Positions 17,294 through 63,938 of a DNA stretch of 64,000 nucleotides are shown one piece after another. The position numbers and the translations under genes were made by a program. Source of the DNA: Patescibacteria group bacterium. GTDB lineage: Bacteria > Patescibacteriota > Gracilibacteria > Peribacterales > Peribacteraceae. Below the pieces are notes generated by a model. The model had not been told where the DNA came from. It made no database searches and was given only the letters and a program-made list of their open reading frames with translations. Position 1 is the stretch's first letter. Each line of letters begins with the position of its first letter. The stretch spans positions 12,739-76,738 of the forward strand of contig JAHIYH010000031.1 of the NCBI GenBank assembly GCA_018814875.1. The letters run 5' to 3'.

Positions 17294-17352
17294 TCGTTAC
17301 TTCGTTATTTCGTTATTTCGAGACAACGAAGTAACGAGATAATGAAATAACG
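17294..17352. repeat. Inverted tandem array, 8-bp unit TTCGTTAT / ATAACGAA
   Basis: tcgttacttcgttatttcgttatttcg ... acaacgaagtaacgagataatgaaataacg. Confidence 0.9.
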
Positions 17353-17361
17353 TCGCTGTGG

Positions 17362-18429
17362 TCACGGATAAATCGCCAGTGGCAACCACTCATTCTTGCC
17401 AATAAGTCTTCTCGCTCTGAAAATAATAAACCTAAGCAGCCTATTTCCATGAGCCGAATAACGTACGAAAGGTTTAAGTTCTCCTCCAAAACTTAATTTG
17501 AATTTTGTAATTCCAAAACGCTCATCATTAGGATCGTCAGTACCTCCGGACATGTTGTACAAACTGTATCCTCCTTTAATAGCATCAGAGATGACAGCCC
17601 ATTGTAGTGCGTTACCAGCATAAAGGTTGCGACCCTCTTCGGTCAGAACGCCACTCCTATATAGGAGTCCTTTTCCAGAATACAAAATCAGTACACCTCC
17701 GACTGTGTGTCCTTCGTGTTTTGCAAGGAAGAGTTTGATCATGTTCTTCTTTGTAAGTGTGTCCCAGACGGTTTGTAGCGATCTTACCGAATTGAGATGT
17801 TGTTTACTCAGGCTCTTCCTTTTGACCAAGTCACTTTGGATTGATTGATACACCTCAAGGTCGTTGCGCGAACCTTCAATCACACTCACGCCATTCTTAT
17901 TGCTTTTATTAATTTGGTTTCGCGCTTTCTGTTCCACTACTTCGTTAAGCATTTTGTGCTCGTCAGATATGAGTGGGATGATAGGTGTCCACTTGGTTGT
18001 GTGCTTAGTTGGTGGCAGGGGAGGAAGAGCTGATCCAAAATCAGGCGAGGCGTAGATTGTTAGCTTCAGTGAGCGTCTTTTCTTGAATTCGGCAATGAGC
18101 TCATCCAAAAGTTTTTTGGCTACAATAAGCCGAAAATCGGCAGGCAGTGTATCAAGAACTACAGGGCCTCCGCCTCCTCCACTCTCTCCGCTTAAGATAG
18201 TCATGGAAACTGGTCCTATTTTCCATTCAAAGGCCTGAAGGGCTCCAACAGGTTTATCACCTTGTTTTACCAGAAGGCGGATTGGTTTTATTCCCTTTAT
18301 TGATCTCATAACTTCTCCCCACTCCCAGGTCTGGTTTACCTCTGGCTTGGATGAAGCTGAAATAATCTGGTCCCATTCCTGAGGTTCTGGCCTGCTGGTA
18401 ATGCTTAAATCTTCCATAGCTGAGAACAT
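17362..18429 (-). CDS. FemAB/FemX-like GNAT family protein
   Basis: QTWEWGEV, ARNQINKS..GV, YAGNALQW, GITKFKLSFGG. Confidence 0.8.
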   Translation of the reverse strand: MFSAMEDLSITSRPEPQEWDQIISASSKPEVNQTWEWGEVMRSIKGIKPIRLLVKQGDKPVGALQAFEWKIGPVSMTILSGESGGGGGPVVLDTLPADFRLIVAKKLLDELIAEFKKRRSLKLTIYASPDFGSALPPLPPTKHTTKWTPIIPLISDEHKMLNEVVEQKARNQINKSNKNGVSVIEGSRNDLEVYQSIQSDLVKRKSLSKQHLNSVRSLQTVWDTLTKKNMIKLFLAKHEGHTVGGVLILYSGKGLLYRSGVLTEEGRNLYAGNALQWAVISDAIKGGYSLYNMSGGTDDPNDERFGITKFKLSFGGELKPFVRYSAHGNRLLRFIIFRARRLIGKNEWLPLAIYP

Positions 18430-18758
18430 AGACTTTACCCGCCTACACAGAAAGCTGCCAGAGTAAGCTGTAGGATGAATTCGTTCAGTACAGATGCGAT
18501 CCCGTTCTTGCCTTCGCGTAGTCGTATCGCCTGTCTGGTTGAAAGAAGAAGTAATATGCGTACGTGCGATATCGCTTCGGCGGAGCGAGGTCGGAGGATT
18601 CCGCGAGTGATGCCGCAGGTGTTTCAGAAAATACTACCAACGTTAGTTGGCAGAGCTTCACTTTGTGTGCATGTGGGTGCCAATTGATTTGCAGAATTTT
18701 TTTAAAAAAGAACTAAGATTTGTGCCAAAGGTTCTTTTCTGACTATACTGCTCCAACT

Positions 18759-20024
18759 ATGGAGTACTGCAAACGTTGTTGTTATCCGGCAAATTCACGC
18801 CCTACCATTATTTTTGATGATCAGGGAGTGTGCAGCGGGTGTCGTTTACACGAAAGCCGCCCTCTCATTGATTGGGATGAGAGGAAAAAGCGCTTTGAAG
18901 ATATCCTTAAGGAATATAGTCAAAAGTCGCGTGCGAATGGTAATCACTATGATCTGATCATTCCTGTTAGTGGTGGAAAAGACAGCCACTTCCAGGTCTA
19001 TACCATAAAACAAATGGGATATAACCCGCTGCTTGTAACGTATAACCATGGATTCAATACCAAGCGCGGGATTCGTAACCTAACCAATATGCTTCATCAA
19101 TTTGGTTTTGACATGCTCCGGTTTACATCGAGCCCAGAAGCAGCAAAAACGATTTCAAAATTTATGCTACAGACCGTTGGCGATATCACGTGGCATTACC
19201 ATGCGGGGATTATGACATTCCCTATCAAGGCAGCTGTCATGAACAAAATTCCGCTGATTCTATGGGGCGAGCACGGATTTTCCGAATTGCTGGGCATGTA
19301 CAACCAGGACGATATGATGGAATTTTCCAAGAAGGACAGGCAGGAGCACAGCATGCGTGGATTCGAGCCAGATGATATTCTTAATCATCCCAATAATACG
19401 GAAGTGCTTCAGGAACATCTTGCTCCGTTCTACTATCCTTCAGATGAGGAGATAGAGGATATAGGTGTGCGGGGGATCTACCTTGCGAATTATGTTGAGT
19501 GGGATGCCCGTGCACATACACGACTCATGATAGAGAAGTATAACTTCGAGACAGCTTTGAAGCGGGAGCGCACACATCATCTTTATGAAAAGCTCGATGA
19601 TATTCATGCTGACGGTGCACATGACTATCTTAAGTATCTAAAATTCGGTTACGGACGTGCTACAGATGATGCAAGTAATGATATTCGTCACGGACGAATG
19701 ACACGGGAGGAGGGAATTAAAATCGTAAGTCAATATGATCATGTACGTCCAAGCGATCTAGATATCTGGCTTAAGTTTGTTGGTATGACAGAAGAAGAAT
19801 TCTTGGGAGAGATTGAACATTTACGGGATCCTAAAATATGGGAGAAAGACGATAGTGGCGAATGGCAAGTGAAGGATTCCATAGCTAATCATGTTGGTGA
19901 TGAAGATGTGGATGCCGTTCGCCTGCCACTCGTAGATGATCGTGAGATGCTCAGGTCGCACAATCAGCCTTCATATTCACGTGATGATCATATAGTTGAA
20001 GACAGTGAATATATTTGGTTCTAA
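18759..20024 (+). CDS. N-acetyl sugar amidotransferase (PseA/WbuX-like)
   Basis: YCKRCCYP, CSGC, PP-loop VSGGKDS, KYLKFGYGRATD. Confidence 0.9.
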   Translation: MEYCKRCCYPANSRPTIIFDDQGVCSGCRLHESRPLIDWDERKKRFEDILKEYSQKSRANGNHYDLIIPVSGGKDSHFQVYTIKQMGYNPLLVTYNHGFNTKRGIRNLTNMLHQFGFDMLRFTSSPEAAKTISKFMLQTVGDITWHYHAGIMTFPIKAAVMNKIPLILWGEHGFSELLGMYNQDDMMEFSKKDRQEHSMRGFEPDDILNHPNNTEVLQEHLAPFYYPSDEEIEDIGVRGIYLANYVEWDARAHTRLMIEKYNFETALKRERTHHLYEKLDDIHADGAHDYLKYLKFGYGRATDDASNDIRHGRMTREEGIKIVSQYDHVRPSDLDIWLKFVGMTEEEFLGEIEHLRDPKIWEKDDSGEWQVKDSIANHVGDEDVDAVRLPLVDDREMLRSHNQPSYSRDDHIVEDSEYIWF

Positions 20025-20033
20025 TATGCGTCC

Positions 20034-26960: not shown

Positions 26961-27033
26961 AAAGTCGAAAAGTCGAAAAGTCGTAATGTCCTAAAGTGAA
27001 GTGGACTTTTCGACATTTTGACATTTCGACCTT
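26961..27033. repeat. Inverted tandem array, 8-bp unit GTCGAAAA / TTTTCGAC
   Basis: aaagtcgaaaagtcgaaaagtcgtaatgtc ... gacttttcgacattttgacatttcgacc, starting just after the stop of the upstream gene. Confidence 0.9.
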
Positions 27034-30103: not shown

Positions 30104-31075
30104 ATGGAACCTAAGCGTGCACTTATTCTTGGAATTACAGGACAAGATGGAAGTTACCTTGCTGAGGTGCTTCTAGAAAAAGATTACGAAGTTCACGGAC
30201 TGATCAGAAGGTCTGCCACAGGCAACACCTGCAATATCGACCACTTTATAGATGACATAGAACTGCACAGAGGAGATCTATCGGATGCACCATCACTTTA
30301 CAGCGCAATCAACACAGTTCGTCCTGATGAGATCTATAACGAAGCAGATCAAGATCATGCTGGTTGGAGTTATAGCGTCGTTGATTATGCTTCGGATATC
30401 ACAGGCGCAGCTCCTGGTAGAATCTTGGAGATCATCAGACAGATTGATACCAAGATAAAATTCTTCCAGCCACTTACATCCAATATGTTTGGTCAGGCAG
30501 AGGAGTGCCCACAGAATGAAGAAACCAAACTTATGCCGCAGAGTCCTTACGCGTGTGCAAAGGCTTATGCTTTTATGCTCACACGTTATTACAGGCAGGT
30601 GCATAACATCTTTGCTTCTACTGCTATCTTCTTTAATCACGAATCTCCACGTCGCACTCCCTCGTATGTTTCGCGAAAGATTACACAGGCTGCAGTTAGA
30701 ATTTCACTTGGATTACAAGATAAACTTTATTTGGGTGATATAGAACCAGAGATAGATTTTGGATACGCAAAGGAATACATGGAGACGGCATGGAAAATAA
30801 TGCAACAAGACAAGCCCGATGACTTTGTAATTGGAACAGGCGAAGCACATTCAGTTAGAGAGCTTATGGAAGCAGCGTTTAAAGCAGTTGGTCTGAATGC
30901 AGATGATTATGTAGAGATTGATCCAAAACTCATCCGTCCAGGCAAAACAAGTACTCTAATTGCAGATTATTCCAAGGCAAATAAAGTATTTGGATACGAA
31001 CCAAAAGTTAAATATGAGGATTTGGTGAAGATCATGATTGAGCATGATAAACGAATTGAGACGAGGACGGTCTAA
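30104..31075 (+). CDS. Divergent GDP-mannose 4,6-dehydratase-like SDR
   Basis: [25 protein letters not shown], but atypical YNEADQDH and QPLTSN motifs. Confidence 0.8.
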   Translation: MEPKRALILGITGQDGSYLAEVLLEKDYEVHGLIRRSATGNTCNIDHFIDDIELHRGDLSDAPSLYSAINTVRPDEIYNEADQDHAGWSYSVVDYASDITGAAPGRILEIIRQIDTKIKFFQPLTSNMFGQAEECPQNEETKLMPQSPYACAKAYAFMLTRYYRQVHNIFASTAIFFNHESPRRTPSYVSRKITQAAVRISLGLQDKLYLGDIEPEIDFGYAKEYMETAWKIMQQDKPDDFVIGTGEAHSVRELMEAAFKAVGLNADDYVEIDPKLIRPGKTSTLIADYSKANKVFGYEPKVKYEDLVKIMIEHDKRIETRTV

Positions 31076-31172
31076 ACAATCAACAATCAACAGTCAACAC
31101 GCGCCTGCGGCGCTCTCAACAATCAACAATCAACAATCAACACGGGTGCTAAGCATCCTCTTAACAATCAAC
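31073..31172. repeat. Left arm of the four-helix-bundle cassette: 7-bp TCAACAA array with embedded GC hairpin
   Basis: taaacaatcaacaatcaacagtcaacacgc-gcctgcggc-gctctcaacaatcaacaatcaacaatcaacac; begins at the upstream TAA. Confidence 0.92.
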
Positions 31173-31209
31173 TTGTTTTGTATGAATGTATTTGGTAGAT
31201 TCGCGTGCT

Positions 31210-31575
31210 ATGTCGGCTTTTAGATTCAAACAGTTCAAAGTTTATAAAGACGCGAAAGAATTTCGAAGGCAAGTTTCGCGTCTTGTAATCAAGCTAACGG
31301 ATAAGCGAGCGTATGATCTTTCCGCTCAAATAAGAAGAGCAAGTCTTTCGATTGTTCTCAATATTGCGGAAGGATCAGCAAAGAAATCAGATATTGATTT
31401 TGCGAGGTTTTTAGAAATATCATCAGGATCTGTTAATGAAGTTGTTGCAGGATTTGATGTTGCACACGACGAAAATCTGATTTCCAGTGAAGATTTAAAT
31501 CTAATTGAAGATAAAGCAAGAGAAATTATAAATCAATTAGGAGGCTTTATAAAAAGCTTAAGAGTTAAAAGTTGA
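31210..31575 (+). CDS. Four helix bundle protein (23S rRNA IVP / Avd-like family)
   Basis: FKQFKVYKDA, LSAQIRRASLSIVLNIAEGS, FARFLEISSGSVNEV, LGGFIKSL are family hallmarks. Confidence 0.9.
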   Translation: MSAFRFKQFKVYKDAKEFRRQVSRLVIKLTDKRAYDLSAQIRRASLSIVLNIAEGSAKKSDIDFARFLEISSGSVNEVVAGFDVAHDENLISSEDLNLIEDKAREIINQLGGFIKSLRVKS

Positions 31576-31619
31576 TAGTTGATAGTTGATAGTTGATAGC
31601 GCAGCGTGTTGATTGTTAT
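31570..31619. repeat. Right arm of the four-helix-bundle cassette: 7-bp AGTTGAT array
   Basis: agttgatagttgatagttgatagttgatagcgcagcgtgttgattgttat; near reverse complement of the left arm and contains the stops of both adjacent genes. Confidence 0.92.
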
Positions 31620-36034: not shown

Positions 36035-36090
36035 GCTGATTAGCTTATTAGTTGATTAGAGTAAGCCAATTAGCCAATAAGCCGCAAGCT
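36035..36090. repeat. Inverted tandem array, 8-bp unit GCTTATTA / CAATAAGC (degenerate)
   Basis: gctgattagcttattagttgatta ... taagccaattagccaataagcc. Confidence 0.75.
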
Positions 36091-36650: not shown

Positions 36651-36724
36651 CCGTTATTTCGTTAATTCGTTATTTCGTTAACCCGTATGAGAAATTACGA
36701 AATAACTAAGTAACGAATTAACGT
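36651..36724. repeat. Inverted tandem array, 8-bp unit TTCGTTAT / ATAACGAA
   Basis: cgttatttcgttaattcgttatttcgtta ... ttacgaaataactaagtaacgaattaacg. Confidence 0.9.
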
Positions 36725-36747: not shown

Positions 36748-38193
36748 ATGGATAACTCTAAAACATCAGATGTACTCGTATTGGGGGCCGGTCCTGCTGG
36801 CATGGCGGCTGCGCTGGAGCTTTCTAGGAGAGGGAAGCGTGTTACAGTAATCGAGAAAGATTCTCAGGTAGGAGGATTGGCAAAGACATATATATTCTCC
36901 GAGCCAGAAGGAGTGTTTAGAACAGATAACGGGCCACATCGTTTCTTCAGCAAAAATAAGTATCTCTACGACATGATCGGAGATTTGCTTGGTGAAAAAT
37001 GGACTCAGGTCCCACGTCTTACGCGCTTCTTTGTTGGTGGAAAATTTTATTTCTATCCAGTTCGATTTAAAAATGTTCTAGGACAGATGGGTTTTATCAA
37101 AGCGTTTAGAGTTTTGTTTGATTATGTGATTGAACATATACGTGCACGTATTAAGCCTCGCAAAATGAATTCATTTGAAGATTTTGCTGTATCACGCTTT
37201 GGTCGCACGCTTGCAGAGTTTAATATGATCAATTACACCGAGAAGATCTGGGGAATTCCGGCGAGCGAGATCAATAAAGATTGGGCATCGCAACGTATTG
37301 CTGGATTAAGTTTGTTTTCTGCGATCAAGAAAATGATTTTTAAAAAAGGAGGACCTAAGTCGCTTGTTGATACGTTCTATTACCCAAGTCTTGGAGCCGG
37401 ACTCGTCTATGAGGGAATGAAGAAGAAAATTGAAGAGAATGGCGGTCAGGTTTTGCTCAATGCAGAGCCAATTTCTGTGAAGCACGAGAATGGTCGTGCA
37501 ACTCAGGTAGAAGTTAAAACTCAGCAAGGAACTAAGTTATTCTCTCCACAAGCAGTCATAAGTTCGATTCCTATCTCGCGCGAGATAGAGCTATTTGATC
37601 CTGTTGTTCCAAACGAAGTCCGTGATGCTGCGGGTAAACTGAGATTTCGTGCGCAGGTCTACCTCTTCCTCACGATTGATAAAGAAAAAGTAACAGATGA
37701 TAACTGGGTGTACTTTCCGGATAAGGAAGTTCCATTCGGACGAATTTCAGAAATGAAAAACTTTAGTAAAGAGATGAGTCCGTCGGATAAGACATCGCTC
37801 TTCGTTGAGTTTTTCTGTTTCGAAGGCGACGAGATCTGGAATGCGAACAAAGATCAGCTTTTTGATATGACAATGGAGTGGTTGGAGAAACTTAAGTTCC
37901 TAAAAAAAGAGGAAGTTTTGAATATTCATTACATCAAGAAGCCGAACGCTTATCCTCTCTACGATTTAGAATACAAAGAGCGCGTATCAACTGTTCTTAA
38001 TTGGATGGACTCGTTTGAAAACTTCTTTGCGATTGGTAGGCCAGGAAGATTCCGTTACACGAATCAGGATCACTCGCTCGAGATGGGAATACTAGCAGCG
38101 CGAAGTGTGTTGGAAGGGAAGCGGTACGAAGTTGATTCTGTAGGATCTGGCAAAGAGTACTTTGAGCAGGGGTATATACCAAATGAAAAATGA
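36748..38193 (+). CDS. FAD-dependent oxidoreductase of glycan loci (protoporphyrinogen oxidase / Glf-related)
   Basis: GAGPAG, IEK..VGG, DNGPHRFF, YTEKIWG, GRPGRFRYTNQDHS. Confidence 0.8.
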   Translation: MDNSKTSDVLVLGAGPAGMAAALELSRRGKRVTVIEKDSQVGGLAKTYIFSEPEGVFRTDNGPHRFFSKNKYLYDMIGDLLGEKWTQVPRLTRFFVGGKFYFYPVRFKNVLGQMGFIKAFRVLFDYVIEHIRARIKPRKMNSFEDFAVSRFGRTLAEFNMINYTEKIWGIPASEINKDWASQRIAGLSLFSAIKKMIFKKGGPKSLVDTFYYPSLGAGLVYEGMKKKIEENGGQVLLNAEPISVKHENGRATQVEVKTQQGTKLFSPQAVISSIPISREIELFDPVVPNEVRDAAGKLRFRAQVYLFLTIDKEKVTDDNWVYFPDKEVPFGRISEMKNFSKEMSPSDKTSLFVEFFCFEGDEIWNANKDQLFDMTMEWLEKLKFLKKEEVLNIHYIKKPNAYPLYDLEYKERVSTVLNWMDSFENFFAIGRPGRFRYTNQDHSLEMGILAARSVLEGKRYEVDSVGSGKEYFEQGYIPNEK

Positions 38194-38212
38194 ATAATGA
38201 AAAATGAATAAT
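38181..38212. repeat. Single-arm tandem array, 7-bp AATGAA(A/T), overlapping the upstream TGA stop
   Basis: aaatgaaaaatgaataatgaaaaatgaataat. Confidence 0.8.
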
Positions 38213-38709: not shown

Positions 38710-40353
38710 ATGCGTACTTCTTGGCGTTGGCCGATCATCCTTGGCGTGAGTTCGATTGTTATTGCTGTGTTTATGCAAGTGCCGCAATTCTTGCATCAAA
38801 TACATCCTGATTCTAAAGGCGTATTAGTTACATTGAATTCTGATGAGCATTACTACTTGGCGCGTGTGCAGGAAGCACTTTCAGGTCGTGGGGAACAGGC
38901 ATCTGAGGCATTTGTGGGAGATCCAGATATTGTGGGTACACAGCTTGCACTAATCGAGCGCTTGTATGGTGTACTTTTCTATTGGACAGGATTAAGAGCT
39001 TCTGGCGTGTTTCAAGTAATGGACAGCGTTCTGCCCGTTCTTATTTTCCTTGGGCTCTTTTTCTTCTTTCAACTCTGTGGATTTACACGCAAGCAGGCGT
39101 TATTTGGAGCGATACTTTTTGTTGTTATAGAAGCATATAACTTAAACAGACCGATTCACATGCGTGCGAGTTTCTTTGCAATGCTCATGACACTTATTTG
39201 TATTGCAGCTGGGATTACTCGTCGTCGATCGTTTGGTATTCTTGGCGGAGTTCTTTTGGGTGTACTCATTGGAGTTTATTTCTGGAGTTGGAGTTTTGCG
39301 TGGTTGTGGTGGGGGATTTATTTTGTGTGGGAATTGGGGGAGTTTGTTTGGCAACGTAGGGTGTTGGGCGTGGGGCGTGGGGCATTGGGAATATGGAAAA
39401 AGCTTCTGATTATTGGAGTGGTCGGGCTTGTTGCAGCACTTCCGTTCATATGGAATCTCTACTCGGTGATGCAGCATCCGCTCTCTGAGTACGGGGTTTT
39501 CCGCAGTGGAATGCATCCTTCGCGTATGCCTGAATCATGGATATACAGCGCATTGTTTGCAGTAATGACCGTAGGTGTACTCATGACGGTTAGAAAAAGA
39601 TATGAACAGTTACGTCCGTACCGCGCTGGAATTGTGACAGTTTTGACGGCATTTGGGTTCATGAATCAGCAGGTTATTCATGGGACAATATTTATGTTTG
39701 TGTCTCATTCCATATTCTCTCTCCTTCTTGCTCCGATAGTGGTGTTACTACTTGCATGGACACTCAGAACTAAGTGGATGATCATTGCAGCCTTAGCAGC
39801 TTGTATATATCTCGCAGGAATAGGATATGACGGAAGGTACGTGCTAGGTCAGTGGACTGTGATACCTGGGCGATTCGCAGATCAGCACTTTGCCACATTG
39901 TTGCCAGTTTTGGATGAGCTCCCGCGCGTACGTATTTTGTCTGACCCCGATAGTACAGCGTTCATTGCGAGTTATACTCATCATGATGTTGTGTATTCCA
40001 TTTATCTAAAGAACGTTCTAATGACTCATAAGGAGATTGCAGAGCGCTTCTGTACTTTGCAGATTCCCACAAATCCCGATGATTGTGACTTTGAAAACAT
40101 AGATCACCTAATTCATCCGGAAGCAAATGCAGTGTTTGGTGATCCAAGTATTAGGGAGAATGAACTTAAATTAATTAATGAAGCGTGTGCAGAAGCCGAT
40201 CGTGATCCGGCAGCATTTCTCAAAAAATTCGATGTGCAGTATGTATTGTGGGATGAAAAGAGGCAGCCAGATTGGGATTTGAGGCGATTTCGTGTTCCTT
40301 TAGAAAAAGTGGTACAAGGAGAAGGGTGGTCGTTGTGGGGGATCGACAGTTAA
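38710..40353 (+). CDS. Polytopic membrane protein, possible GT-C fold glycosyltransferase
   Basis: DE motif after the first TM (NSDEHYY), many TMs, soluble C-terminal domain (VQYVLWD). Confidence 0.55.
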   Translation: MRTSWRWPIILGVSSIVIAVFMQVPQFLHQIHPDSKGVLVTLNSDEHYYLARVQEALSGRGEQASEAFVGDPDIVGTQLALIERLYGVLFYWTGLRASGVFQVMDSVLPVLIFLGLFFFFQLCGFTRKQALFGAILFVVIEAYNLNRPIHMRASFFAMLMTLICIAAGITRRRSFGILGGVLLGVLIGVYFWSWSFAWLWWGIYFVWELGEFVWQRRVLGVGRGALGIWKKLLIIGVVGLVAALPFIWNLYSVMQHPLSEYGVFRSGMHPSRMPESWIYSALFAVMTVGVLMTVRKRYEQLRPYRAGIVTVLTAFGFMNQQVIHGTIFMFVSHSIFSLLLAPIVVLLLAWTLRTKWMIIAALAACIYLAGIGYDGRYVLGQWTVIPGRFADQHFATLLPVLDELPRVRILSDPDSTAFIASYTHHDVVYSIYLKNVLMTHKEIAERFCTLQIPTNPDDCDFENIDHLIHPEANAVFGDPSIRENELKLINEACAEADRDPAAFLKKFDVQYVLWDEKRQPDWDLRRFRVPLEKVVQGEGWSLWGIDS

Positions 40354-40370
40354 CAGTTAACAATTAACAA
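40346..40370. repeat. Tandem array, 7-bp TTAACA(G/A), supplying the upstream TAA
   Basis: acagttaacagttaacaattaacaa. Confidence 0.8.
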
Positions 40371-41611: not shown

Positions 41612-43498
<1,887 letters not shown>

Positions 43499-43510
<12 letters not shown>

Positions 43511-45100: not shown

Positions 45101-45156
45101 CGGAATTTGATTATTCGAATAATGGAATAATCGAATATTCTATTATTCGAATTCCG
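45101..45156. repeat. Palindromic degenerate array, 8-bp ATTATTCG / CGAATAAT
   Basis: cggaatttgattattcgaataatggaataatcgaatattctattattcgaattccg. Confidence 0.75.
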
Positions 45157-45187: not shown

Positions 45188-46279
45188 ATGATTTCTCTTA
45201 TATTACCAACGTACAACGAAGCAGAGAACATTCCTGAGCTTCTTCCTAAGATTGAGGAGATCTTATCGGGCATTCCGCACGAAATTATCATTGTGGATGA
45301 TGATTCTCCTGATAAAACGTGGCAGGTGGCGTTGGATCTTTCTCAGAATAAAGAAGATGTGCACGTTATTCGTAGAGTTGATAAACGAGGGCTTTCCTCT
45401 GCAGTCATTGATGGGTTCCTTGCAGCTAAGGGAGATGTATTTGCAGTAATGGATGCGGATGGGCAGCACGATATGGAATTACTTCCAAAGTTGTACGTAG
45501 CAGTTAAGGAAAACAATGGCCTCGCAATTGGATCAAGATATATTGAAGGCGGAAGCGTAGGCGGTTGGGATGAACGAAGACACTTTTTGAGCAAGATTGC
45601 GACAAAGATGGCATTGCATATTTGCAGTGTAAAAGTAAAAGATCCGATGAGTGGATTTTTTGCACTTGATCGCAAAGTATTTGAAGAAGTTTTACCAAGA
45701 TTAAATCCAAAGGGATTCAAAATCCTTCTCGACTTACTCGTGCATGTCCCCAAAGAAACCAAAGCTACGGAAACACCTTACACATTCGGTGTTCGTCAAT
45801 TAGGAAAGAGCAAACTCTCTTGGAAAGTGCAGATAGAATTTTTGGAATATCTTTACGATGTGACTGTAGGAAGATTCATTCCGCTGACATTCGTAAAGTT
45901 CTGCATTGTTGGAACATTTGGAGTTTTTGTTCACTTGATAGCGTACGGTGTTATCTCTCGTTCCATCATGGATGGGGATCCACTGACGATCGGAGGGTTC
46001 TCATTTGCAGTAATTGGAGCCACAGAAATTGCAATTATCTTCAATTATCTGCTGAATAACTCCTGGACATTTGCACATCAAAAGTTACGAGGAACATCAG
46101 CAATAGTTGGTTTCTTCAAATACAACGTTGCATGCTCGTTTGGGGCACTGGCAAATTGGGCGGTTAGTGCTTATCTCTTCTCGATTGGGTGGATTGATTT
46201 TCTGGCGGTCTTCACAGGAGCAATTGTTGGAGTTATGTGGAACTACACGATGAATAGGATGTTTACTTGGCGAAAGTAG
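45188..46279 (+). CDS. GT2 (Dol-P-Man synthase-like) fused to a C-terminal GtrA domain
   Basis: PTYNEAEN, VDDDSPDKT, MDADGQH, DPMSGFF; then KFCIVG...NYLLNNSWTF...WNY...FTW. Confidence 0.9.
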   Translation: MISLILPTYNEAENIPELLPKIEEILSGIPHEIIIVDDDSPDKTWQVALDLSQNKEDVHVIRRVDKRGLSSAVIDGFLAAKGDVFAVMDADGQHDMELLPKLYVAVKENNGLAIGSRYIEGGSVGGWDERRHFLSKIATKMALHICSVKVKDPMSGFFALDRKVFEEVLPRLNPKGFKILLDLLVHVPKETKATETPYTFGVRQLGKSKLSWKVQIEFLEYLYDVTVGRFIPLTFVKFCIVGTFGVFVHLIAYGVISRSIMDGDPLTIGGFSFAVIGATEIAIIFNYLLNNSWTFAHQKLRGTSAIVGFFKYNVACSFGALANWAVSAYLFSIGWIDFLAVFTGAIVGVMWNYTMNRMFTWRK

Positions 46280-46358
46280 TATTTCGTATTTCGTATCTCG
46301 TATTTCGTATCTAGCATGGCCTTTAGACCGAAATACTAAATACTAGATACTAAATACG
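46279..46358. repeat. Inverted tandem array, 7-bp GTATTTC / GAAATAC, between convergent genes
   Basis: gtatttcgtatttcgtatctcgtatttcgtatctag ... gaaatactaaatactagatactaaatacg; touches both stop codons. Confidence 0.93.
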
Positions 46359-47297
46359 ATAGTACTCGCGGTACCATTCCACAAACTTAGGCACTCCATC
46401 CTTAATTTGTGTCTTAGGTTCGTATCCAAGATCTCTCTTTGCCTTGGAGACATCCGCAAGACTTGCTCGCACATCTCCTTTCTGCATTGGCATAAAGTTC
46501 TTCTGAGCCTCTTTTCCACATGCTTCTTCGATTGTTGTGATGAAGTCCATGAGCTCTTCTTGTCTTCCAGAGCCTAAGTTGTATGCCTCCTCCTCAGCAT
46601 TGTTATCGATTGCTCCGATTGTGCCTGCAACAATATCTTCAACAAAAGTGAAGTCGCGTTGCATTTTTCCTTCGCCGAATACGTTAATGGGTTTGTCGTT
46701 CAGAATTGCATCTGTAAATAGGAAGAGTGCCATGTCTGGGCGCCCCCATGGTCCGTAAACCGTGAAGAATCGAAGTCCTGTAACAGGAATTCCATACAGG
46801 TGATGGTATGTATGGGCCATTAGTTCATTGTTTTTCTTGGTCATGCCGTAGAGTGCCAGCTGACTATCTGTTCGATCATCTTCGCTTGATGGTAGCTTCT
46901 TGTTATCACCATAAATAGAACTTGAAGAAGCGTAGATAAAACCGGGGATTTCTTGCATGCGTGCCTCATCTATCATCTCGAATGTTCCTTGGATATTATT
47001 CAGAATAAATTCATCTGGATGCTCAAACGAGTAGCGCACTCCGGCGAGTGCAGCTAAGTGGCACACACGATCTACTCCTTTCATAGCTCCACGTACTGTC
47101 TTGCGGTCTGTAATATCTCCACGTACGAGTGTGAATCCTTTTACTCCTTCCAACTGTTTGATTCTGTCCTCTTTAAGCTGAGGATCGTAGTAGGGATTGA
47201 AGTTATCTATTCCGATTACTTCATCACCACGTGCGAGTAGAACTTTCGCCGTATGGAAGCCAATGAACCCTGCCGCTCCTGTTAGTAGAATCTTCAT
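46350..47297 (-). CDS. UDP-glucuronate 4-epimerase-like NAD-dependent epimerase
   Basis: TGAAGFIG, HLAALAGVRYS, YGMTKK, LRFFTVYGPWGRPDMA. Confidence 0.92.
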   Translation of the reverse strand: MKILLTGAAGFIGFHTAKVLLARGDEVIGIDNFNPYYDPQLKEDRIKQLEGVKGFTLVRGDITDRKTVRGAMKGVDRVCHLAALAGVRYSFEHPDEFILNNIQGTFEMIDEARMQEIPGFIYASSSSIYGDNKKLPSSEDDRTDSQLALYGMTKKNNELMAHTYHHLYGIPVTGLRFFTVYGPWGRPDMALFLFTDAILNDKPINVFGEGKMQRDFTFVEDIVAGTIGAIDNNAEEEAYNLGSGRQEELMDFITTIEEACGKEAQKNFMPMQKGDVRASLADVSKAKRDLGYEPKTQIKDGVPKFVEWYREYYRI

Positions 47298-47390
47298 TAG
47301 TTTCTAGTTTATTAGTTTTTAGTTTTTAGTTACACCGTTTTTGCTCCTTTTTAGTAAACTAGGAACCAGAAACTAGCTAACCAGAAACTG
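47298..47390. repeat. Inverted tandem array, 7-bp TAGTTT(T/C) / AAACTAG
   Basis: tagtttctagtttattagtttttagtttttagtt ... aaactaggaaccagaaactagctaaccagaaactg; fills the intergenic gap. Confidence 0.85.
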
Positions 47391-48701: not shown

Positions 48702-48793
48702 AAATTGATAATGGAAAATTGATAATTGACAATTATGTTATGGAACATAAGCGTCTTACCAATTGTCCATTGTCCATTGTTAATTATCAATTA
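48702..48793. repeat. Inverted tandem array, 7-bp AATTGA(T/C) / (A/G)TCAATT
   Basis: aattgataatggaaaattgataattgacaatt ... aattgtccattgtccattgttaattatcaatt. Confidence 0.88.
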
Positions 48794-48836: not shown

Positions 48837-49787
48837 ATGAAAAAAAAGATCTTAATAACCGGTTCTGTCGCATACGACGTCATGCTCGGATATGATGGGT
48901 CCTTTGCGAAAGCTATAAACCCAGAGACAATCGACAGCTTGTCCCTTTCCTTCTTCTCGCCGCACTACGCACGGCATCATGGAGGAACTGGAGCGAATAT
49001 TGCATGGAGTTTGAAGTTACTTGGTGAAGATCCACTACTCGTCAGTTCGGTTGGAAGTGATGGCCGAGAGTACACAGCAGTTTTGGAGAAGCAGGGAATT
49101 GATACAGGTCACATAGAAATTTTGGAAGATCACGTTACCGCAACCGCGATTGTTGGAACGGATAGTGATGAACGACAGATCGCATTTTTTCATCCGGGTG
49201 CAGATTCACATGGAACTTGGCCGGATCTATCCCAAGATCGTGATGACTTGGCGTATGCCATAGTCAGCCCACGTGATACAACTGCAATGGTGAGTGGGAT
49301 GGAATGGTGCAAGAAGTTTGGAGTTCCAGTTATATTCGATCCTGGTCAGCAGATCATTTCTTTTGGAGAAGATGCGTTAGAGCGGATGGTTCGTATGGGA
49401 TCTGCACTTATTGCAAACGAATACGAATGGGATTTGGTGCAGAAGAAATTATCGTGTGATGGTAAAAGTATTCTGGAACTTGTTCCTCTAGTGATTGTTA
49501 CACTGGGCGATCAAGGCTTTATAGTGATTGACGAGAATGGAGCTAAGAAAATGAATGCATGTACTCCTCTTCAGGTGGTCAATCCAACAGGGGCAGGGGA
49601 TGCATTCCGTGCAGGACTTCTAAAAGGATTCGCCGCAGGATGGAATGTAATGGATTCGTGCAAATTGGGTGCGGCTTTGGGGTCACTTGCTGTGGAGAAT
49701 GAAGGGACACTCCTTTCTTCTATTGATAGTGATGAAGTAAAACTGAGAATTAAACAGGCGTATGGGGTAGATATACCTTTGGTGTAA
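48837..49787 (+). CDS. PfkB family kinase (adenosine kinase-like)
   Basis: GSVAYD, GGTGANIA, FDPGQ, NEYE, NPTGAGDAFRAG; adjacent to ahcY. Confidence 0.85.
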   Translation: MKKKILITGSVAYDVMLGYDGSFAKAINPETIDSLSLSFFSPHYARHHGGTGANIAWSLKLLGEDPLLVSSVGSDGREYTAVLEKQGIDTGHIEILEDHVTATAIVGTDSDERQIAFFHPGADSHGTWPDLSQDRDDLAYAIVSPRDTTAMVSGMEWCKKFGVPVIFDPGQQIISFGEDALERMVRMGSALIANEYEWDLVQKKLSCDGKSILELVPLVIVTLGDQGFIVIDENGAKKMNACTPLQVVNPTGAGDAFRAGLLKGFAAGWNVMDSCKLGAALGSLAVENEGTLLSSIDSDEVKLRIKQAYGVDIPLV

Positions 49788-49815
49788 GTTCCAAGGTCCA
49801 AGTTCCAAGTGCCAA
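49786..49815. repeat. Single-arm tandem array, 7-bp AAGTTCC, starting in the upstream TAA
   Basis: aagttccaaggtccaagttccaagtgccaa. Confidence 0.8.
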
Positions 49816-51360: not shown

Positions 51361-51475
51361 CAACAGTTGACCAGCCTTCGCTAAAGCTACGGCCGGCAGG
51401 CAGTTAACATTTAACAATTAACAGTTAAAAATTAATAACCGCAACCGTAACCGCAACAGCGACGCCGCGTCGCTG
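51361..51475. repeat. Composite repeat: TTAACAG array interrupted by a REP-like element, then an AACCGC array and a GC hairpin
   Basis: caacagttga-ccagccttcgctaaagctacggccggcagg-cagttaacatttaacaattaacagttaa; aaccgcaaccgtaaccgcaac; cagcgacg-ccg-cgtcgctg. Confidence 0.85.
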
Positions 51476-54010: not shown

Positions 54011-54052
54011 AAAGTTAAAAGTGAAAAGTTAAAAGTGAATAGTGAATAGTGA
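54011..54052. repeat. Single-arm tandem array, 7-bp AAAGTGA drifting to TAGTGAA
   Basis: aaagttaaaagtgaaaagttaaaagtgaatagtgaatagtga. Confidence 0.85.
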
Positions 54053-55557: not shown

Positions 55558-55628
55558 AATAGAGAAGGGGAAAGGCATAGGTTGTCTTAAAGCGTACTCG
55601 TTCCTTTATATTTGCACAATATGCCATA

Positions 55629-55712
55629 AAATGAATAGTGAATAATGAAAAATGGAAAATTAAAGGGTGATTCTGTGATTATTCTTCATTATTCATTTTT
55701 CATTCTTCATTT
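55629..55712. repeat. Inverted tandem array, 7-bp AATGAA(T/A) / (A/T)TTCATT
   Basis: aaatgaatagtgaataatgaaaaatggaaaatt ... attcttcattattcatttttcattcttcattt. Confidence 0.9.
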
Positions 55713-58138: not shown

Positions 58139-58250
58139 TGACACGTTCGCCTACGGCGAACTTTCAACACGCTTCGCTTTCAACAATCAACTTCAAAGTT
58201 GATGGTTGAAAGCGACCCCACTTTACCGGGGAGCGTGTTGATTGTTATCA
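58136..58250. repeat. Gene-less copy of the four-helix-bundle cassette arms
   Basis: tcaacacgc-ttc-gctttcaacaatcaac ... gttgatggttgaaagcg...agcgtgttgattgttat; the 17-mer 58232-58248 is identical to 31603-31619. Confidence 0.88.
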
Positions 58251-58276
58251 CGTTCATGATAAAATACAAAATCTTC

Positions 58277-58813: not shown

Positions 58814-58850
58814 CGTTATTTCGTTATTTCGTTAATTCGTTTATTTGTTA
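58813..58850. repeat. Tandem array, 8-bp TTCGTTAT, starting at the TGA stop
   Basis: acgttatttcgttatttcgttaattcgtttatttgtt. Confidence 0.88.
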
Positions 58851-58989
58851 AATAAATGGCCAATAACTAGGGTAAAAGGCCATTGCTCAATTAACAATAT
58901 TCAGTATTGTTAGTACGTTCCTGCAAAGGATAAAAAGAGTAGGAACAGGTCCTGCTCATTCACAATTCTCAATGATGGGAGAGTAGATC

Positions 58990-59616: not shown

Positions 59617-59623
59617 TTCTCTC

Positions 59624-59671
59624 AAGGGTAGGACCACCCTTAAAGCCCTGTACCATTGTATGGGGCTTTAA
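59624..59671 (+). terminator. Two adjacent hairpins after the orphan gene
   Basis: aagggt-aggacc-accctt and taaagccc...gggcttta. Confidence 0.55.
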
Positions 59672-59720
59672 ACTGCATAAGAAATGAATCGAAAAGAGGG
59701 GGCAAAGGAGTCGGAGATAT

Positions 59721-59838
59721 GACGTTATCTCATTATTTCGTTAATTCGTTAATTCGTTTATTTGTTGAACTGAGCTGCGGTTGTGATTCGTTAATTCGTT
59801 AAACTGAGATTCGAAATAACAAAATAACGAAGTAGCAA
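59721..59838. repeat. Inverted tandem array, 8-bp TTCGTTA(T/A) / ATAACGAA
   Basis: gacgttatctcattatttcgttaattcgttaattcgtt ... cgaaataacaaaataacgaagtagc. Confidence 0.88.
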
Positions 59839-59839
59839 A

Positions 59840-60166
59840 TCATAGAGCCAACAACATCTCTCCCTGTGGTAATCCCAGCGCTTCCCAGAAATTCAAAACA
59901 AAGAGGAATATGAAAAATGCAGCAAGAGGAATACCGATTCCCAGTGCAAGAGCGCGCGAAGGTGTATCTTTTGGATGAACACTTAAATAAAGTCCGGTTC
60001 CTCCATATAGAATTGTTGTGAGTGCGAAAGAGAGATCAGCACGCTGTATCCACCAAGCGGATCCAGCAGCATAGATTCCATTATGCATTAATAGGTATGC
60101 CATAAAGAGGCTTATACCAAGGAGGAAGAATAGGAAGCCTGTGAGGCGGTGTAGATAGGATGTCAC
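59840..60166 (-). CDS. Hypothetical membrane protein (3 TM)
   Basis: 108 aa, three hydrophobic segments, GTG start. Confidence 0.65.
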   Translation of the reverse strand: MTSYLHRLTGFLFFLLGISLFMAYLLMHNGIYAAGSAWWIQRADLSFALTTILYGGTGLYLSVHPKDTPSRALALGIGIPLAAFFIFLFVLNFWEALGLPQGEMLLAL

Positions 60167-60172
60167 GTCAAA

Positions 60173-60203
60173 TAGCTTATAGCTTTTAGCTTCTAGCTTC
60201 TAG
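60173..60203. repeat. Single-arm tandem array, 7-bp TAGCTTN
   Basis: tagcttatagcttttagcttctagcttctag. Confidence 0.85.
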
Positions 60204-60227
60204 GGATATTAGTCTTGTATCTCTGAT

Positions 60228-60368
60228 TCATTTCTTCTTCTGCACAGTAAGCCTCTTCCTGCCTTTTCTCCTGCGGCGACTCAGCAGAGCCTTTCCATCC
60301 TTGGATGAGCTACGCTGTAAGAAACCGTGCTTACGGAGACGCCGACGCCATTTCAATTTACCTAACAT
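60228..60368 (-). CDS. rpmH: 50S ribosomal protein L34
   Basis: Manual translation MLGKLKWRRRLRKHGFLQRSSSKDGKALLSRRRRKGRKRLTVQKKK; HGF..R and G..LL.RRR.KGR..L motifs; below the ORF-track cutoff. Confidence 0.92.
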   Translation of the reverse strand: MLGKLKWRRRLRKHGFLQRSSSKDGKALLSRRRRKGRKRLTVQKKK

Positions 60369-60408
60369 TGCTGGTGGACGTTATCTATAAGTTTATGTCT
60401 GGTCAACA

Positions 60409-60479
60409 AGTTAGTTAGTTTTTTAGTTTCTGGTTTTTAGTTATCTAGCAACTATGAACTAAAAAACCAGTTAACTAAT
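60409..60479. repeat. Degenerate inverted array, TAGTTTT / AAAACTA type
   Basis: agttagttagttttttagtttctggtttttagtt ... aactatgaactaaaaaaccagttaactaa. Confidence 0.75.
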
Positions 60480-60506
60480 CGATGATCCTGCCCTACACTC
60501 TTTCTA

Positions 60507-61769: not shown

Positions 61770-61780
61770 TATATAGAACA

Positions 61781-61864
61781 ATTGTTCCATTGCTTCATTG
61801 TCTCATTGTTAAAAGTTGGATACTTGCTTGCGAACAATGGAACAATGGAACAATATAGCAATGT
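61781..61864. repeat. Inverted tandem array, 8-bp CATTGTTC / GAACAATG
   Basis: attgttccattgcttcattgtctcattgtt ... gaacaatggaacaatggaacaatatagcaatg. Confidence 0.92.
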
Positions 61865-61882
61865 ATTAATTTTCCCTTACTT

Positions 61883-62317
61883 ATGCAAAGAACTCTGATT
61901 CTACTCAAGCCCGACTGCATGCAGAAAAAGATCTGTGGCAAGGTTCTCGCGCGATTCGAAGACGCCGGATTCAAGATTATCGGATGCAAAATGATCAAGT
62001 TAGATCTTGATACATTGCGTGAACACTATGCTCACATTGCAGAGTTTCCGTTTTATCCAGATGTAGAAAAGTTCATGAGTTCTACACCAGTAATTGGAAT
62101 GGTTTTGGAAGGCGATGGGATTATCGAAAAGATGCGTGAGAATTTGGGAGTAACAGATTGTTTAGAAGCAGCTTCTGGAACAATTCGTGCTGAGTTTGGA
62201 AGCAAAGAAGAAGGGGATAGCAAAATGCGCAATGTAGTCCATGCTTCGGATAGCGAAGAGGCTGCCGCGAATGAGATTGCAAGGTTCTTTAAAAAAGACG
62301 AACTTTTTGAGTATTAA
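61883..62317 (+). CDS. ndk: Nucleoside diphosphate kinase
   Basis: RTLILLKPD, HYAH...PFY, GTIR, NVVHASDS. Confidence 0.95.
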   Translation: MQRTLILLKPDCMQKKICGKVLARFEDAGFKIIGCKMIKLDLDTLREHYAHIAEFPFYPDVEKFMSSTPVIGMVLEGDGIIEKMRENLGVTDCLEAASGTIRAEFGSKEEGDSKMRNVVHASDSEEAAANEIARFFKKDELFEY

Positions 62318-62337
62318 TAATTTTTCCCCATTTATGT

Positions 62338-62559
62338 ATGCAAAATCTATTAACTAAAAAACTAGATGTAATGAATGGTTTAGGAATACAGGCAAGCAAT
62401 AGAAGAGTTCTTGTTGCCGAGGCAGAGCTTTTAGTTAAGGAGCTTAGAAAATGTGGGAAACATGAATTGGCTGACAAATTAGAAGCATCTGCAAGAGAAG
62501 TGCAAAGCACACAGGAGGCTGCTCGCAAAAGTACAGTAGAGTGTCTTCAGTCGCTATAA
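62338..62559 (+). CDS. Small hypothetical helical protein (73 aa)
   Basis: Fills the gap between ndk and the protease; stop abuts the convergent gene. Confidence 0.45.
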   Translation: MQNLLTKKLDVMNGLGIQASNRRVLVAEAELLVKELRKCGKHELADKLEASAREVQSTQEAARKSTVECLQSL

Positions 62560-63819
62560 CTATAATTGCGTTGGCTCCTCTCCATCCAAAAGTAACTCCA
62601 GTGCCGCATCCAGCTGCGGATCTTTCTCATCTATAATATCCTCACGTGTGCGTTCAACTTCGATATCAGGATGCACTCCATCCTTGCCCAAATCTCTTCC
62701 TGAAGGCGTTAGCCACCTTGCAACCGTGATACGGACTGATGCATTACCTGGGAGGTCAAAGACCTCCTGAACGGTTCCCTTCCCAAAGCTCTTCTTACCA
62801 ATGATTGTTGCGCGTCCAGCATCTTGCAAGGCGCCTGCCAAAATTTCTGATGCGCTTGCGGAACCTTCATTGATCAAAACAACAAGTGGGATATCCGGAT
62901 CAGATGGTCGACCGGAAACATAGTGGTTTGATGGTTCCCCATTTCTACGTTCAACAGTTACTACCTTTCCTTCTTTTAAGAACATAGATGCCATATCAAC
63001 AGCGCCTTCCAGATATCCACCACCATTAAAGCGCACATCCATAATGAGGCCTTGTAGATCTTCATCGCGCATGTCTTTGAGTGCGCTCTTCACTTCTTTC
63101 ACGCTGTCTTCTCCAAATTGATTGAGTTGAATGTATCCGATGGAACCCGTTGCAGTTTCTTTAACTTCATATTCAACACTCGGAATGGTGATACTTGCAC
63201 GTGTGATGGTGATGTCTAGGAGATCGGATTCTTCTTCGCGTTTAATGCTCAGAGTCACTTTAGACCCCTTTTCTCCTCGGATTCTCTGTACAACTTGGTG
63301 AAGTGTTTCCCCTGTGATATCGACATCATCTACTTTTAGGACAATATCTTCTGGTTCCAGCCCTGCTTTGGAGGCAGGAGATCCTTTAAGAGGAGCGACC
63401 ACAACCACCATTCCATCACGCATTGTGAGTTCTGCGCCAATACCTTCCATCTTTCCTTGTAGTGATTGTGTGAATTGGGCGTTCTCCGTTGGAGTCATAA
63501 AGGTGGTGTATGGATCACCAATGGCACGTACCAATCCACCTACTGCACCGTAAACCATTTCGGGGGGATTAAGTTGATCTTCAATAATGTAATGCTTGAG
63601 GAGCAACCTCCATACGCCCCAAAGAAGTGAAAGATCCACTTCCTGTTCTGGATTACCCAACAGAGTTCCACTTGCAGTTTTGCCTGTATACAGAAGCTCC
63701 AATTGCTGCGAAAGCTCAACCAGATTTTTTTGTTCGTAGCGTGCACCGATCTGCCACCCCAAAAACAAAGTAATGAGTGGTAGGATCAGGAGAGTGCTTG
63801 TTCTGAGGAGCTTTGGCAT
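62560..63819 (-). CDS. S41 family carboxyl-terminal processing protease (PDZ)
   Basis: N-terminal TM, DPYT, GIG PDZ, DVRFNGGG, SASASEI, SFGKGTVQ. Confidence 0.95.
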   Translation of the reverse strand: MPKLLRTSTLLILPLITLFLGWQIGARYEQKNLVELSQQLELLYTGKTASGTLLGNPEQEVDLSLLWGVWRLLLKHYIIEDQLNPPEMVYGAVGGLVRAIGDPYTTFMTPTENAQFTQSLQGKMEGIGAELTMRDGMVVVVAPLKGSPASKAGLEPEDIVLKVDDVDITGETLHQVVQRIRGEKGSKVTLSIKREEESDLLDITITRASITIPSVEYEVKETATGSIGYIQLNQFGEDSVKEVKSALKDMRDEDLQGLIMDVRFNGGGYLEGAVDMASMFLKEGKVVTVERRNGEPSNHYVSGRPSDPDIPLVVLINEGSASASEILAGALQDAGRATIIGKKSFGKGTVQEVFDLPGNASVRITVARWLTPSGRDLGKDGVHPDIEVERTREDIIDEKDPQLDAALELLLDGEEPTQL

Positions 63820-63865
63820 ACCCGACGAGTATAGCGGATCTTTATTGTGTTGTTCTAATTTGAAT

Positions 63866-63938
63866 GGGAAATAAGGGAAATAGAAGAAATAAAGGATCGT
63901 CTATTTCTTTTATTGCCCTTATTTCTTTTATTTCTCCC
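63866..63938. repeat. Inverted tandem array, 9-bp GGAAATAAG / CTTATTTCT
   Basis: gggaaataagggaaatagaagaaataaagg ... ctatttcttttattgcccttatttcttttatttctccc. Confidence 0.88.

Follow-up and report, generated by a model that had tools for sequence, protein, structure and literature searches.

The intergenic gaps of a 64,000-nt stretch of DNA (hereafter the window; positions 12739-76738 of contig C23 in G000, a Peribacteria metagenome-assembled genome (MAG) of the Candidate Phyla Radiation, CPR) hold many short arrays of tandemly repeated units, often paired with an inverted array of the same family. These micro-arrays are probably the arms of selfish stem-loop elements of the intervening sequence (IVS) type, of which the full-length members carry a small gene, while derivatives or relatives without an open reading frame (ORF) have been copied widely. 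A unit of 6-9 bp, different in each case, characterizes every lineage of elements. In the full-length members, the gene in the loop usually encodes a PF05635 protein (four-helix bundle, Avd-like) and sometimes a PD-(D/E)XK protein ('PDDEXK_3'); the ORF-less members, with arms of ~30 nt and a loop of 5-70 nt, are found in about one-third of intergenic gaps and, within the 23S rRNA gene, at six or more sites. The evidence comes from direct observation of the architecture of the elements, the sharing of units, the dispersed copies of a non-repetitive core, the turnover among congeners, the presence in rRNA, the co-occurrence with PF05635 and the purifying selection on the cargo. What is new is that IVS elements are spread genome-wide, with repeat-built, lineage-specific arms; a full-text literature search, which left most subscription journals uncovered, found no paper tying PF05635 cassettes to genome-wide heptamer hairpins.

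The genome of 1.42 Mb is distributed over 70 contigs and has 42.8% G+C; the nearest relatives of the pheT gene of the window (81%, 66% and 63% identity) are from Candidatus Peribacteria and Peregrinibacteria MAGs (CPR/Patescibacteria), and a heterocystous cyanobacterium, which the heptamers might have suggested as the source, was rejected on these grounds. Genes were delimited by crude ORF calls (1348 ORFs, 86.6% coding, genome-wide), and only gaps of at least 30 nt were counted. Arrays were located with Tandem Repeats Finder (TRF), whose rows were compared with those from three dinucleotide shuffles of the genome, and hairpins were accepted at an ungapped net score of at least 12.

The arrays and their inverted pairing are confirmed as real and far above chance. 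Every unit and site listed in a first-pass annotation of the window, which had been made from the sequence alone, was found again by TRF and direct reading, and the window gave 66 TRF rows, nearly all of period 7 or 8 and located between ORFs. Genome-wide, periods 7, 8 and 9 yielded 621, 225 and 332 rows, as compared with 21-29, 30-35 and 25-33 in the shuffles, while periods 10 and 11 were close to shuffle level; the non-coding 13% of the genome holds most of 72% of the period-7 rows and of 75% of the period-8 rows. When a partner was sought within 120 nt at an ungapped score of at least 12, an inverted one was found for 368 of the 663 merged non-coding arrays (56%), against 4 of 663 in the reverse control and 70 of 663 in the complement control. 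Likewise, hairpins were present in 293 of 913 gaps and in only 4 of 913 shuffled gaps.

The first-pass annotation had placed arrays in most gaps from 27 kb onwards, and this holds: 19 of the 27 gaps between 27 and 64 kb contain one, as opposed to none of the seven before 17 kb. Hairpins reached the score in 10 of these 27 gaps; the two at 26961/27004 and 43378/43454 both fold well, but are not among the ten because they straddle the crude ORF limits. The proposal that the arrays would form long hairpins on transcription agrees with RNA folding predictions, in which nine of ten window hairpins have z values from -4.2 to -9.4 and the tenth is weak (z -1.5). Arm length is ~30 nt whatever the period, the median copy number being 4.5 for 7-mers and 3.8 for 8-mers, and the copy number of the arrays peaks at 4-5 without declining steadily. 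The claim of a different 7-9 bp unit at each site has to be corrected, since the 663 arrays reduce to 204 canonical consensus units that form recurrent families.

The elements of the window are listed below with their coordinates, strand (a point where none is given), nature and supporting evidence; fold energies and z values are predictions.

17294..17352, strand. : ORF-less hairpin, unit TTCGTTAT and its inverse; TRF, score 16, fold -23.6 kcal/mol, z -5.2
26961..27030, strand. : ORF-less hairpin, unit GTCGAAAA, which starts right at the upstream ORF's stop codon; TRF, direct reading, fold z -6.0
31075..31142, strand + : left arm of a cassette, two TCAACAA/AACAATC arrays with a small G+C-rich hairpin between them; TRF, direct reading, pairs with 31570-31617 (minimum free energy and centroid folds)
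31186..31575, strand + : cargo gene, 129 residues, PF05635 23S_rRNA_IVP (four-helix bundle, Avd-like); Pfam E 2.7e-27
31570..31617, strand + : right arm of the cassette, inverse AGTTGAT array from the stop codon plus an outer GTGTTGATTGTTAT segment; TRF, fold
36035..36083, strand. : weak hairpin, units GCTGATTA / TAAGCCAA; TRF, score only 8
36652..36723, strand. : ORF-less hairpin, unit TTCGTTA(A/T)T; TRF, score 19.5, fold z -5.7
38181..38212, strand. : solo array AATGAAA, overlapping a stop codon; TRF, direct reading, no partner found
40346..40369, strand. : solo array TTAACAG at a stop codon; TRF, direct reading
43378..43510, strand. : long ORF-less hairpin, unit GTCGAAAA; TRF, fold -61.4 kcal/mol, z -9.4
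45109..45152, strand. : array of a self-complementary 16-mer (GATTATTCGAATAATC); TRF, direct reading
46279..46357, strand. : ORF-less hairpin GTATTTC between convergent genes; TRF, comparison with relatives, fold
47297..47389, strand. : ORF-less hairpin TAGTTTT at an operon junction; comparison with relatives, fold
48703..48792, strand. : ORF-less hairpin AATTGAT/AATTGAC in a divergent gap; comparison with relatives, hairpin score, fold
49786..49815, strand. : solo array AAGTTCC at a stop codon; TRF, direct reading
51404..51435, strand. : solo array TTAACAG; TRF, direct reading
54011..54052, strand. : solo array AAAGTGA; TRF, comparison with relatives
55628..55711, strand. : ORF-less hairpin AATGAAT in the divergent gap upstream of pheT; comparison with relatives, fold
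58139..58250, strand. : ORF-less element of the TCAACAA family, whose outer segments are common to both TCAACAA cassettes of the genome; read by eye
58814..58850, strand. : array CGTTATTT at a stop codon, a direct copy of the left arm at 59733; TRF, direct reading, comparison with relatives
59733..59839, strand. : composite hairpin, TTCGTTAAT arrays and inverse; TRF, score 13, weak fold z -1.5
60172..60203, strand. : solo array TAGCTTC; TRF
60409..60476, strand. : ORF-less hairpin TAGTTTT/TGGTTTT; direct reading, score 12.5
61781..61863, strand. : ORF-less hairpin CCATTGTT (gap 61770-61882); comparison with relatives, score 16, fold z -5.5
63902..63935, strand. : array of 9-mers, TATTTCTTT; TRF

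The link between the arrays and a gene comes from the cassettes. The genome contains 24 small cargo genes, 21 of PF05635 ('23S rRNA intervening-sequence protein') and three of PDDEXK_3 (PF13366); each of the 24 has a flanking array and a unit of its own, and in 17 TRF arrays are present on both sides. The downstream arm of the cassettes starts at the stop codon of the cargo gene, and in the window cassette the arms are predicted to pair across the ORF in the RNA (z -6.8). When 61 PF05635 cassettes were considered (21 of G000 and 40 of five other genomes), the flanks were inverted-complementary to each other at a score of at least 12 in 48, as against 8 of 359 mismatched flank pairs. The spacing of inverted array pairs of one family is bimodal: one mode consists of 134 pairs at up to 100 nt (the ORF-less hairpins), and the other of 18 pairs at 350-600 nt, the majority of which are cargo cassettes.

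It had been suggested that the unit classes might match the arms of full cassettes with a four-helix-bundle cargo. They do: taking as free all arrays outside cassettes, and as a match at least 50% of 7-mers in common, 368 of 629 free arrays (59%) matched cassette arms, and only 48-58 (8%) did so after column permutation. There is approximately one cassette per unit family in the genome, and the matching is largely with residents. Ten random cassettes of G000 match 71-99 of 633 free arrays of the same genome, while ten cassettes each from the congeners G003, G004 and G007 match 44, 9 and 35 of them, and seven from G001 match 30, so that resident cassettes are matched two to ten times more than those of congeners. 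Of the earlier idea that a shared mechanism writes or delivers the arms, delivery is therefore supported by the cassette matches and the shared units, and nothing points to writing on site.

The cargo paralogues of G000 are old (33-72% identity) and under purifying selection, with ratios of non-synonymous to synonymous substitution rates (dN/dS) of 0.04-0.18 in 9 of 12 pairs, the other three being saturated at synonymous sites. The arms diverge faster than the proteins: they are common to all five protein pairs of at least 85% identity and to none below 45%, and one pair of 77%-identical proteins has entirely different arms. The relatives of the window protein in the PDB, 2GSC and 2RLD, are four-helix bundles deposited with five chains each. 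The idea that each subunit of a pentamer corresponds to one unit was considered and found unsupported, because arm length is constant whatever the period and there is no fixed count of five. Other kinds of cargo were also sought: ORFs lying between arrays of one family 0.6-3 kb apart proved mutually dissimilar and, on reading of their translations, mostly housekeeping (S5-like, RNase HII-like), and were rejected.

Copying is most evident in the CCATTGTT family, which has 19 dispersed copies of a 31-nt non-repetitive core enclosed by CCATTGTT arms. The core opens with 13 nt identical to the leader of the CCATTGTT cassette, and its end is a stop codon abutting the right arm, as in cassettes; descent by internal deletion therefore fits. 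One copy has retained the core with both arms switched to another unit, still complementary.

Elements of the same kinds are found inside the 23S rRNA gene of G000 (contig C68), in which model positions 15-2044 occupy 3149 nt. At least six ORF-less hairpin-array inserts interrupt it, among them two AAGTTCC hairpins, a ~200-nt AATTGAC element that occurs three times, each time at another position, and a single CCATTGTT-plus-core element such as is also seen between genes. In G021, a genome with no PF05635 match, the 23S gene is uninterrupted (3035 nt for the full 2925-position model).

The same 23S gene has two further inserts of ~750 nt at adjacent 23S positions (L123:6572-7325 and 7360-8100), the former with an ORF resembling, by eye, a LAGLIDADG homing endonuclease and the latter with a GACAATT hairpin nested inside; both are probable group I introns.

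Comparison of orthologous gaps in the genus, among congeners with 75-86% DNA identity in genes, revealed changes in the copy number of one family, replacement by another family, and clean presence or absence. The gap at 46279..46357 is 3 nt long in G007 and contains an AATTCTT array element in G003. The hairpin at 47298-47390 is absent in G003, where the genes abut, and present with a different loop in G005; that of the gap at 61770-61882 is also absent in G003. At 48703..48792, G003 has a TAGCTTG hairpin and G007 none, and the gap at 69519-69573 is filled in G003 only. The array at 54011..54052 is kept in G003 with a different unit order. At 55628..55711, G003 has the same AATGAAT family, G001 a variant with both arms changed, and loci L002, L023 and L013 other families; upstream of pheT, at least five unit families occur among the genomes compared.

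The arrays also follow the gene across genomes. Among 31 relatives, the number of PF05635 matches varies from 0 to 24. In 40-kb samples from 12 of them, the three genomes without PF05635 had 1, 0 and 1 arrays of period 7 or 8, and the seven with at least eight matches had 3-20; Spearman's rho was 0.71 over the 12 genomes, which are related and not independent. Base composition is not the cause, because G017 (58% G+C, eight PF05635 matches) has 14 arrays while G008 and G014 (59-60% G+C, no PF05635) have 1 and 0. Outside this group, a relative of the window protein was found in ten plasmid records, every one of them cyanobacterial. Six PF05635 genes on such plasmids were examined: the flanks are inverted heptamers in four and direct arrays in one, and the remaining gene has no visible arrays; a 50-kb stretch of a Nostoc plasmid contains ORF-less hairpins with a unit identical to that of its cassette.

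One cyanobacterial case lies beside CRISPR (clustered regularly interspaced short palindromic repeats) genes: in Pseudanabaena plasmid NZ_CP112875.1 (45877-47024; L118), a PF05635 gene stands between cas6 and cas4, flanked by direct, not inverted, AAAAGCT/AAAAGCC arrays of ~10-15 copies. The legend of a figure in a 2023 Science paper includes '23S rRNA IVP' among CRISPR-linked domains.

As to mechanism, the elements might work as follows, by analogy with known IVSs. In a transcript, the arms would pair into a stem of ~25-30 bp, which RNase III, whose gene is present in the genome, would cut; the element would be removed in this way from rRNA and operon transcripts, and its insertions would be tolerated. 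Tandem-unit arms could arise by replication slippage, and the two arms could be kept complementary by a process at the DNA level, e.g. template switching or conversion. Retro-mobility via a resident reverse transcriptase (RT) was considered and discarded: an RT is not required, because none was found in 21 of the 31 relatives, several of which have many PF05635 genes (including the PF05635 carriers G017, G027, G022 and G009). More speculatively, Avd-like rings of PF05635 may recognize the 7-9 nt arms of their own cassette and drive or protect an RT-free copying, and this single mechanism might explain IVSs, the heptamer arrays of cyanobacteria and those of Beggiatoaceae and Bacteroidetes; we put this forward as a tentative idea that is considerably less likely to be right than wrong.

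It should be noted that several observations weigh against the interpretation as selfish elements or parts of it. At the 50% threshold, about 41% of the free arrays are without a match among the resident cassettes. Mismatches compatible with G.U pairing are equal on the two strands (114 sense, 115 antisense), and there is therefore no sign of selection on pairing at the RNA level; this argues that pairing is kept at the DNA level, and RNase III cleavage is proposed by analogy. Visual inspection of filled and empty sites, and of the surroundings of the 19 core copies, revealed no target-site duplication, a test weakened by the fuzzy ends of the arrays. The cassettes contain no known transposase, their cargo being PF05635 or PDDEXK_3 only, and a genome-wide search for transposases was not made. 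Among loops of at least 18 nt, 153 of 210 are singletons, and non-array sequence in common with cassette regions was found in only 25 of 292 hairpin gaps, the matches being mostly short; descent of hairpins from cassettes is therefore shown for a few families only, because most loops are unique and few gaps match cassettes. The reverse order of events is possible, with hairpins first and cargo genes inserted into their loops later.

These observations have to be set against four other explanations. The arrays may be binding sites, in addition to or instead of being mobile DNA: each PF05635 paralogue, likely a pentamer, would bind its own DNA or RNA repeat family, and the resident proteins would act in trans on the free hairpins as a set of sites, whether to regulate, to process RNA or to maintain the element. 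We regard this as unlikely but worth serious consideration. The near one-to-one relation of cassettes and unit families, the excess of matches with resident cassettes, the selection on the cargo and the five chains of 2GSC and 2RLD all agree with it, as do a review that likens PF05635 to the nucleic-acid-handling protein Avd of diversity-generating retroelements (DGRs) (PMC10053308) and a preprint on Nostoc in which a partner of heptamer repeats is inferred (10.1101/2022.06.06.494920). However, the resident matching is equally expected from copying within a genome, and neither the 77%-identical proteins with entirely different arms nor arms of constant length with no fixed five units are what such binding would lead one to expect. 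Host-selected terminators or stabilizers of 3' ends, grown by slippage and into which cargo genes have landed, are a quite improbable source of the arrays. It is true that the stems are stable, and that the median distance of arrays in tandem gaps is 8 nt to the stop codon upstream and 41.5 nt to the start that follows, yet such stop-hugging and start-avoiding placement fits any insert that is tolerated only where nothing breaks. The frequency of hairpins is much the same whatever the type of gap (divergent 33%, tandem 31%, convergent 35%), only 4 of 130 hairpins have at least six T in the 8 nt after the stem, and those examined for terminator features have a median loop of 27 nt on a median stem of 25 bp. 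With the lack of G.U strand bias, terminator activity, which the first-pass annotation had proposed to assay, fails these sequence tests; the same elements, moreover, lie inside the 23S rRNA gene.

The arrays could also be neutral, microsatellite-like products of slippage, with inverted copies made by quasi-palindrome correction and no link to any element, but this is very improbable. Heptanucleotide repeats are said to be the most abundant long simple repeats in most prokaryote genomes surveyed, slippage having been proposed as the cause (PMC4679880, introduction), and copy number does change between congeners (e.g. AGGGCT, 90 nt vs 37 nt). Slippage would not, however, account for a limited set of unit families in common with cassette arms, for a non-repetitive 31-nt core that recurs 19 times, for elements inside a conserved rRNA gene, for the near absence of arrays in G008 and G014 as compared with G017 at similar G+C, or for a copy number peaking at 4-5. 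An artefact of assembly, finally, can virtually be discounted, although some contigs from public sequencing runs break at arrays, e.g. near 54.01-54.04 kb. Contigs of two public DNA runs cover 44000-63999 and span most arrays, with no differences and no indel in any array; this agreement does not count as independent support, because either run may be the source of the present assembly. The same architecture is found in independent MAGs and in finished cyanobacterial plasmids. The contigs of the two runs, which drop rare variants, displayed no heterogeneity in copy number.

Some other features of the window and of the genus may be recorded here. The first 17,000 nt of the window, with higher G+C (up to 49.5%) and tight operons, have arrays in none of seven gaps. 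Small G+C-rich mini-hairpins lie between or beside arrays at 31099-31115, 51365-51395 and 58143-58162, and a similar CCTTCGCTAAAGCTACGG motif is present downstream of pheT in locus L003; these may be nested inserts. A long G+C-rich palindrome at 49830-50030, and another G+C-rich repeat of ~100 nt at two orthologous gaps of G003 (contig C58), show that the genus also has intergenic repeats of another, unrelated kind. The ~0.9 kb segment at 58797-59770 contains a 208-residue ORF (58990-59616) without a Pfam match, and its boundaries are formed by the CGTTATTT array together with a directly duplicated end of the upstream gene; the orthologous place in G003 is without the segment. The ORFs at 38710-40353 (547 residues) and 43499-44800 (433 residues) have no NCBIfam match, and the former has no Pfam match either. 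Elsewhere in the genome, a conserved 76-nt sequence occurs in six copies (C12:4702, C12:44895, C36:62552, C37:49631, C44:21754 and C44:29518) in the loop of short non-tandem inverted flanks, and may be a small RNA or another element family. With Rfam families at the gathering score, the sole match in the window was a tRNA-Ser at 55063-55152; the arrays and hairpins match none.

For the annotation of CPR genomes, the selfish-element interpretation means that a single kind of element takes up ~1 kb of the 23S gene and about one-third of the intergenic gaps. The arrays might also be confused with CRISPR-like repeats; CRISPR arrays have repeats of 24-48 nt with unique spacers, and the units here are of 6-9 nt and contiguous. 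The description that fits is that of the short tandemly repeated repetitive (STRR) heptamers of cyanobacteria and similar heptamer repeats (tandem units of ~7 bp, intergenic, few recurrent families), which is a descriptive class and is silent on mechanism. Intergenic heptamer arrays have been described for decades in cyanobacteria and other bacterial phyla, with no agreement on their origin. In G000 they are tied to the IVS protein, because array families include gene-bearing cassettes, hairpins of the same families interrupt an rRNA gene, and relatives without the gene are nearly without arrays. These findings may help to explain the heptamer repeats of other bacteria and provide a testable lead on their origin. 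If copying guided by PF05635 were true, the elements would constitute a class of protein-guided selfish element with gene-bearing and gene-less members.

Among known systems, the repetitive extragenic palindromic (REP) sequences and bacterial interspersed mosaic elements (BIMEs), associated with the RAYT proteins, resemble the present elements as abundant intergenic hairpins, but REPs have one sequence per genome, whereas G000 has many unit families and arms made of tandem arrays. Closer are foldback transposons (the FB elements of Drosophila), the inverted termini of which are built of tandem sub-repeats, and miniature inverted-repeat transposable elements (MITEs). As in these, short non-coding derivatives outnumber gene-bearing parents, the copies are dispersed and have inverted ends, and insertions are polymorphic between relatives. 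A conserved interior is seen in the 19 copies of the 31-nt core and the three of the ~200-nt 23S element, most loops being singletons. The differences are that the elements of G000 have neither a visible target-site duplication nor a transposase within them, and that their cargo is a non-enzymatic fold of ~120 residues or a small protein of nuclease fold.

The cargo also brings DGRs to mind, since a review equates PF05635 with the DGR protein Avd (PMC10053308). Unlike Avd, the cassette genes stand alone, and the two RTs of the genome are on contigs C43 and C29, not on that of the window. Both RTs belong to DGR-like loci (C43:36000-46000, L124; C29:64000-74426, L125), each with an RT and, close to it, imperfect direct repeats (104-118 nt, 81-87% identity), and one of them with a bAvd-like gene (PF22296); a PF05635 cassette lies ~1 kb from the RT of C43.

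The STRR and similar arrays share with those of G000 the intergenic position, the tandem heptamers, the few families per genome and the patchy occurrence across phyla. Intergenic TAACTGA heptamer arrays were reported in Beggiatoaceae, Cyanobacteria and Bacteroidetes with no evident mechanism (MacGregor, 2015; PMC4679880), and a Beggiatoa genome contained 169 direct sets and one inverted set; neither 'S23' nor 'intervening' occurs in that paper, which therefore makes no tie between the arrays and PF05635. For Nostoc, a preprint describes regulatory effects of heptamer repeats (10.1101/2022.06.06.494920). No function is agreed upon on either side (PMC4679880). The main difference is in orientation: those arrays were reported as direct, whereas in G000 56% are in inverted pairs that match the arms of cassettes.

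The closest relatives are the IVSs, which occur with an S23p/PF05635 ORF in Leptospira and Coxiella, and after which PF05635 was named. Like them, the elements of G000 have inverted flanks able to form a stem, with room for a PF05635 ORF in the loop, and the same hairpin families are present inside its own 23S gene, the copies in the window being intergenic. According to a study on the Coxiella IVS (PMC4990558), this too has inverted repeats; two or three tandem heptamers, variable among strains, precede the S23p ORF, and RNase III cuts at the first of them. The study cites older proposals of IVS mobility and argues that its own ORF is decaying. Most copies in G000, in contrast, lie outside rRNA, in about one-third of the intergenic gaps; both arms are whole arrays, belonging to ~20 unit lineages per genome; and ORF-less copies outnumber ORF-bearing ones by more than 10:1. 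The cargo of G000, moreover, is under purifying selection, whereas the Coxiella ORF was argued to be in decay (PMC4990558).

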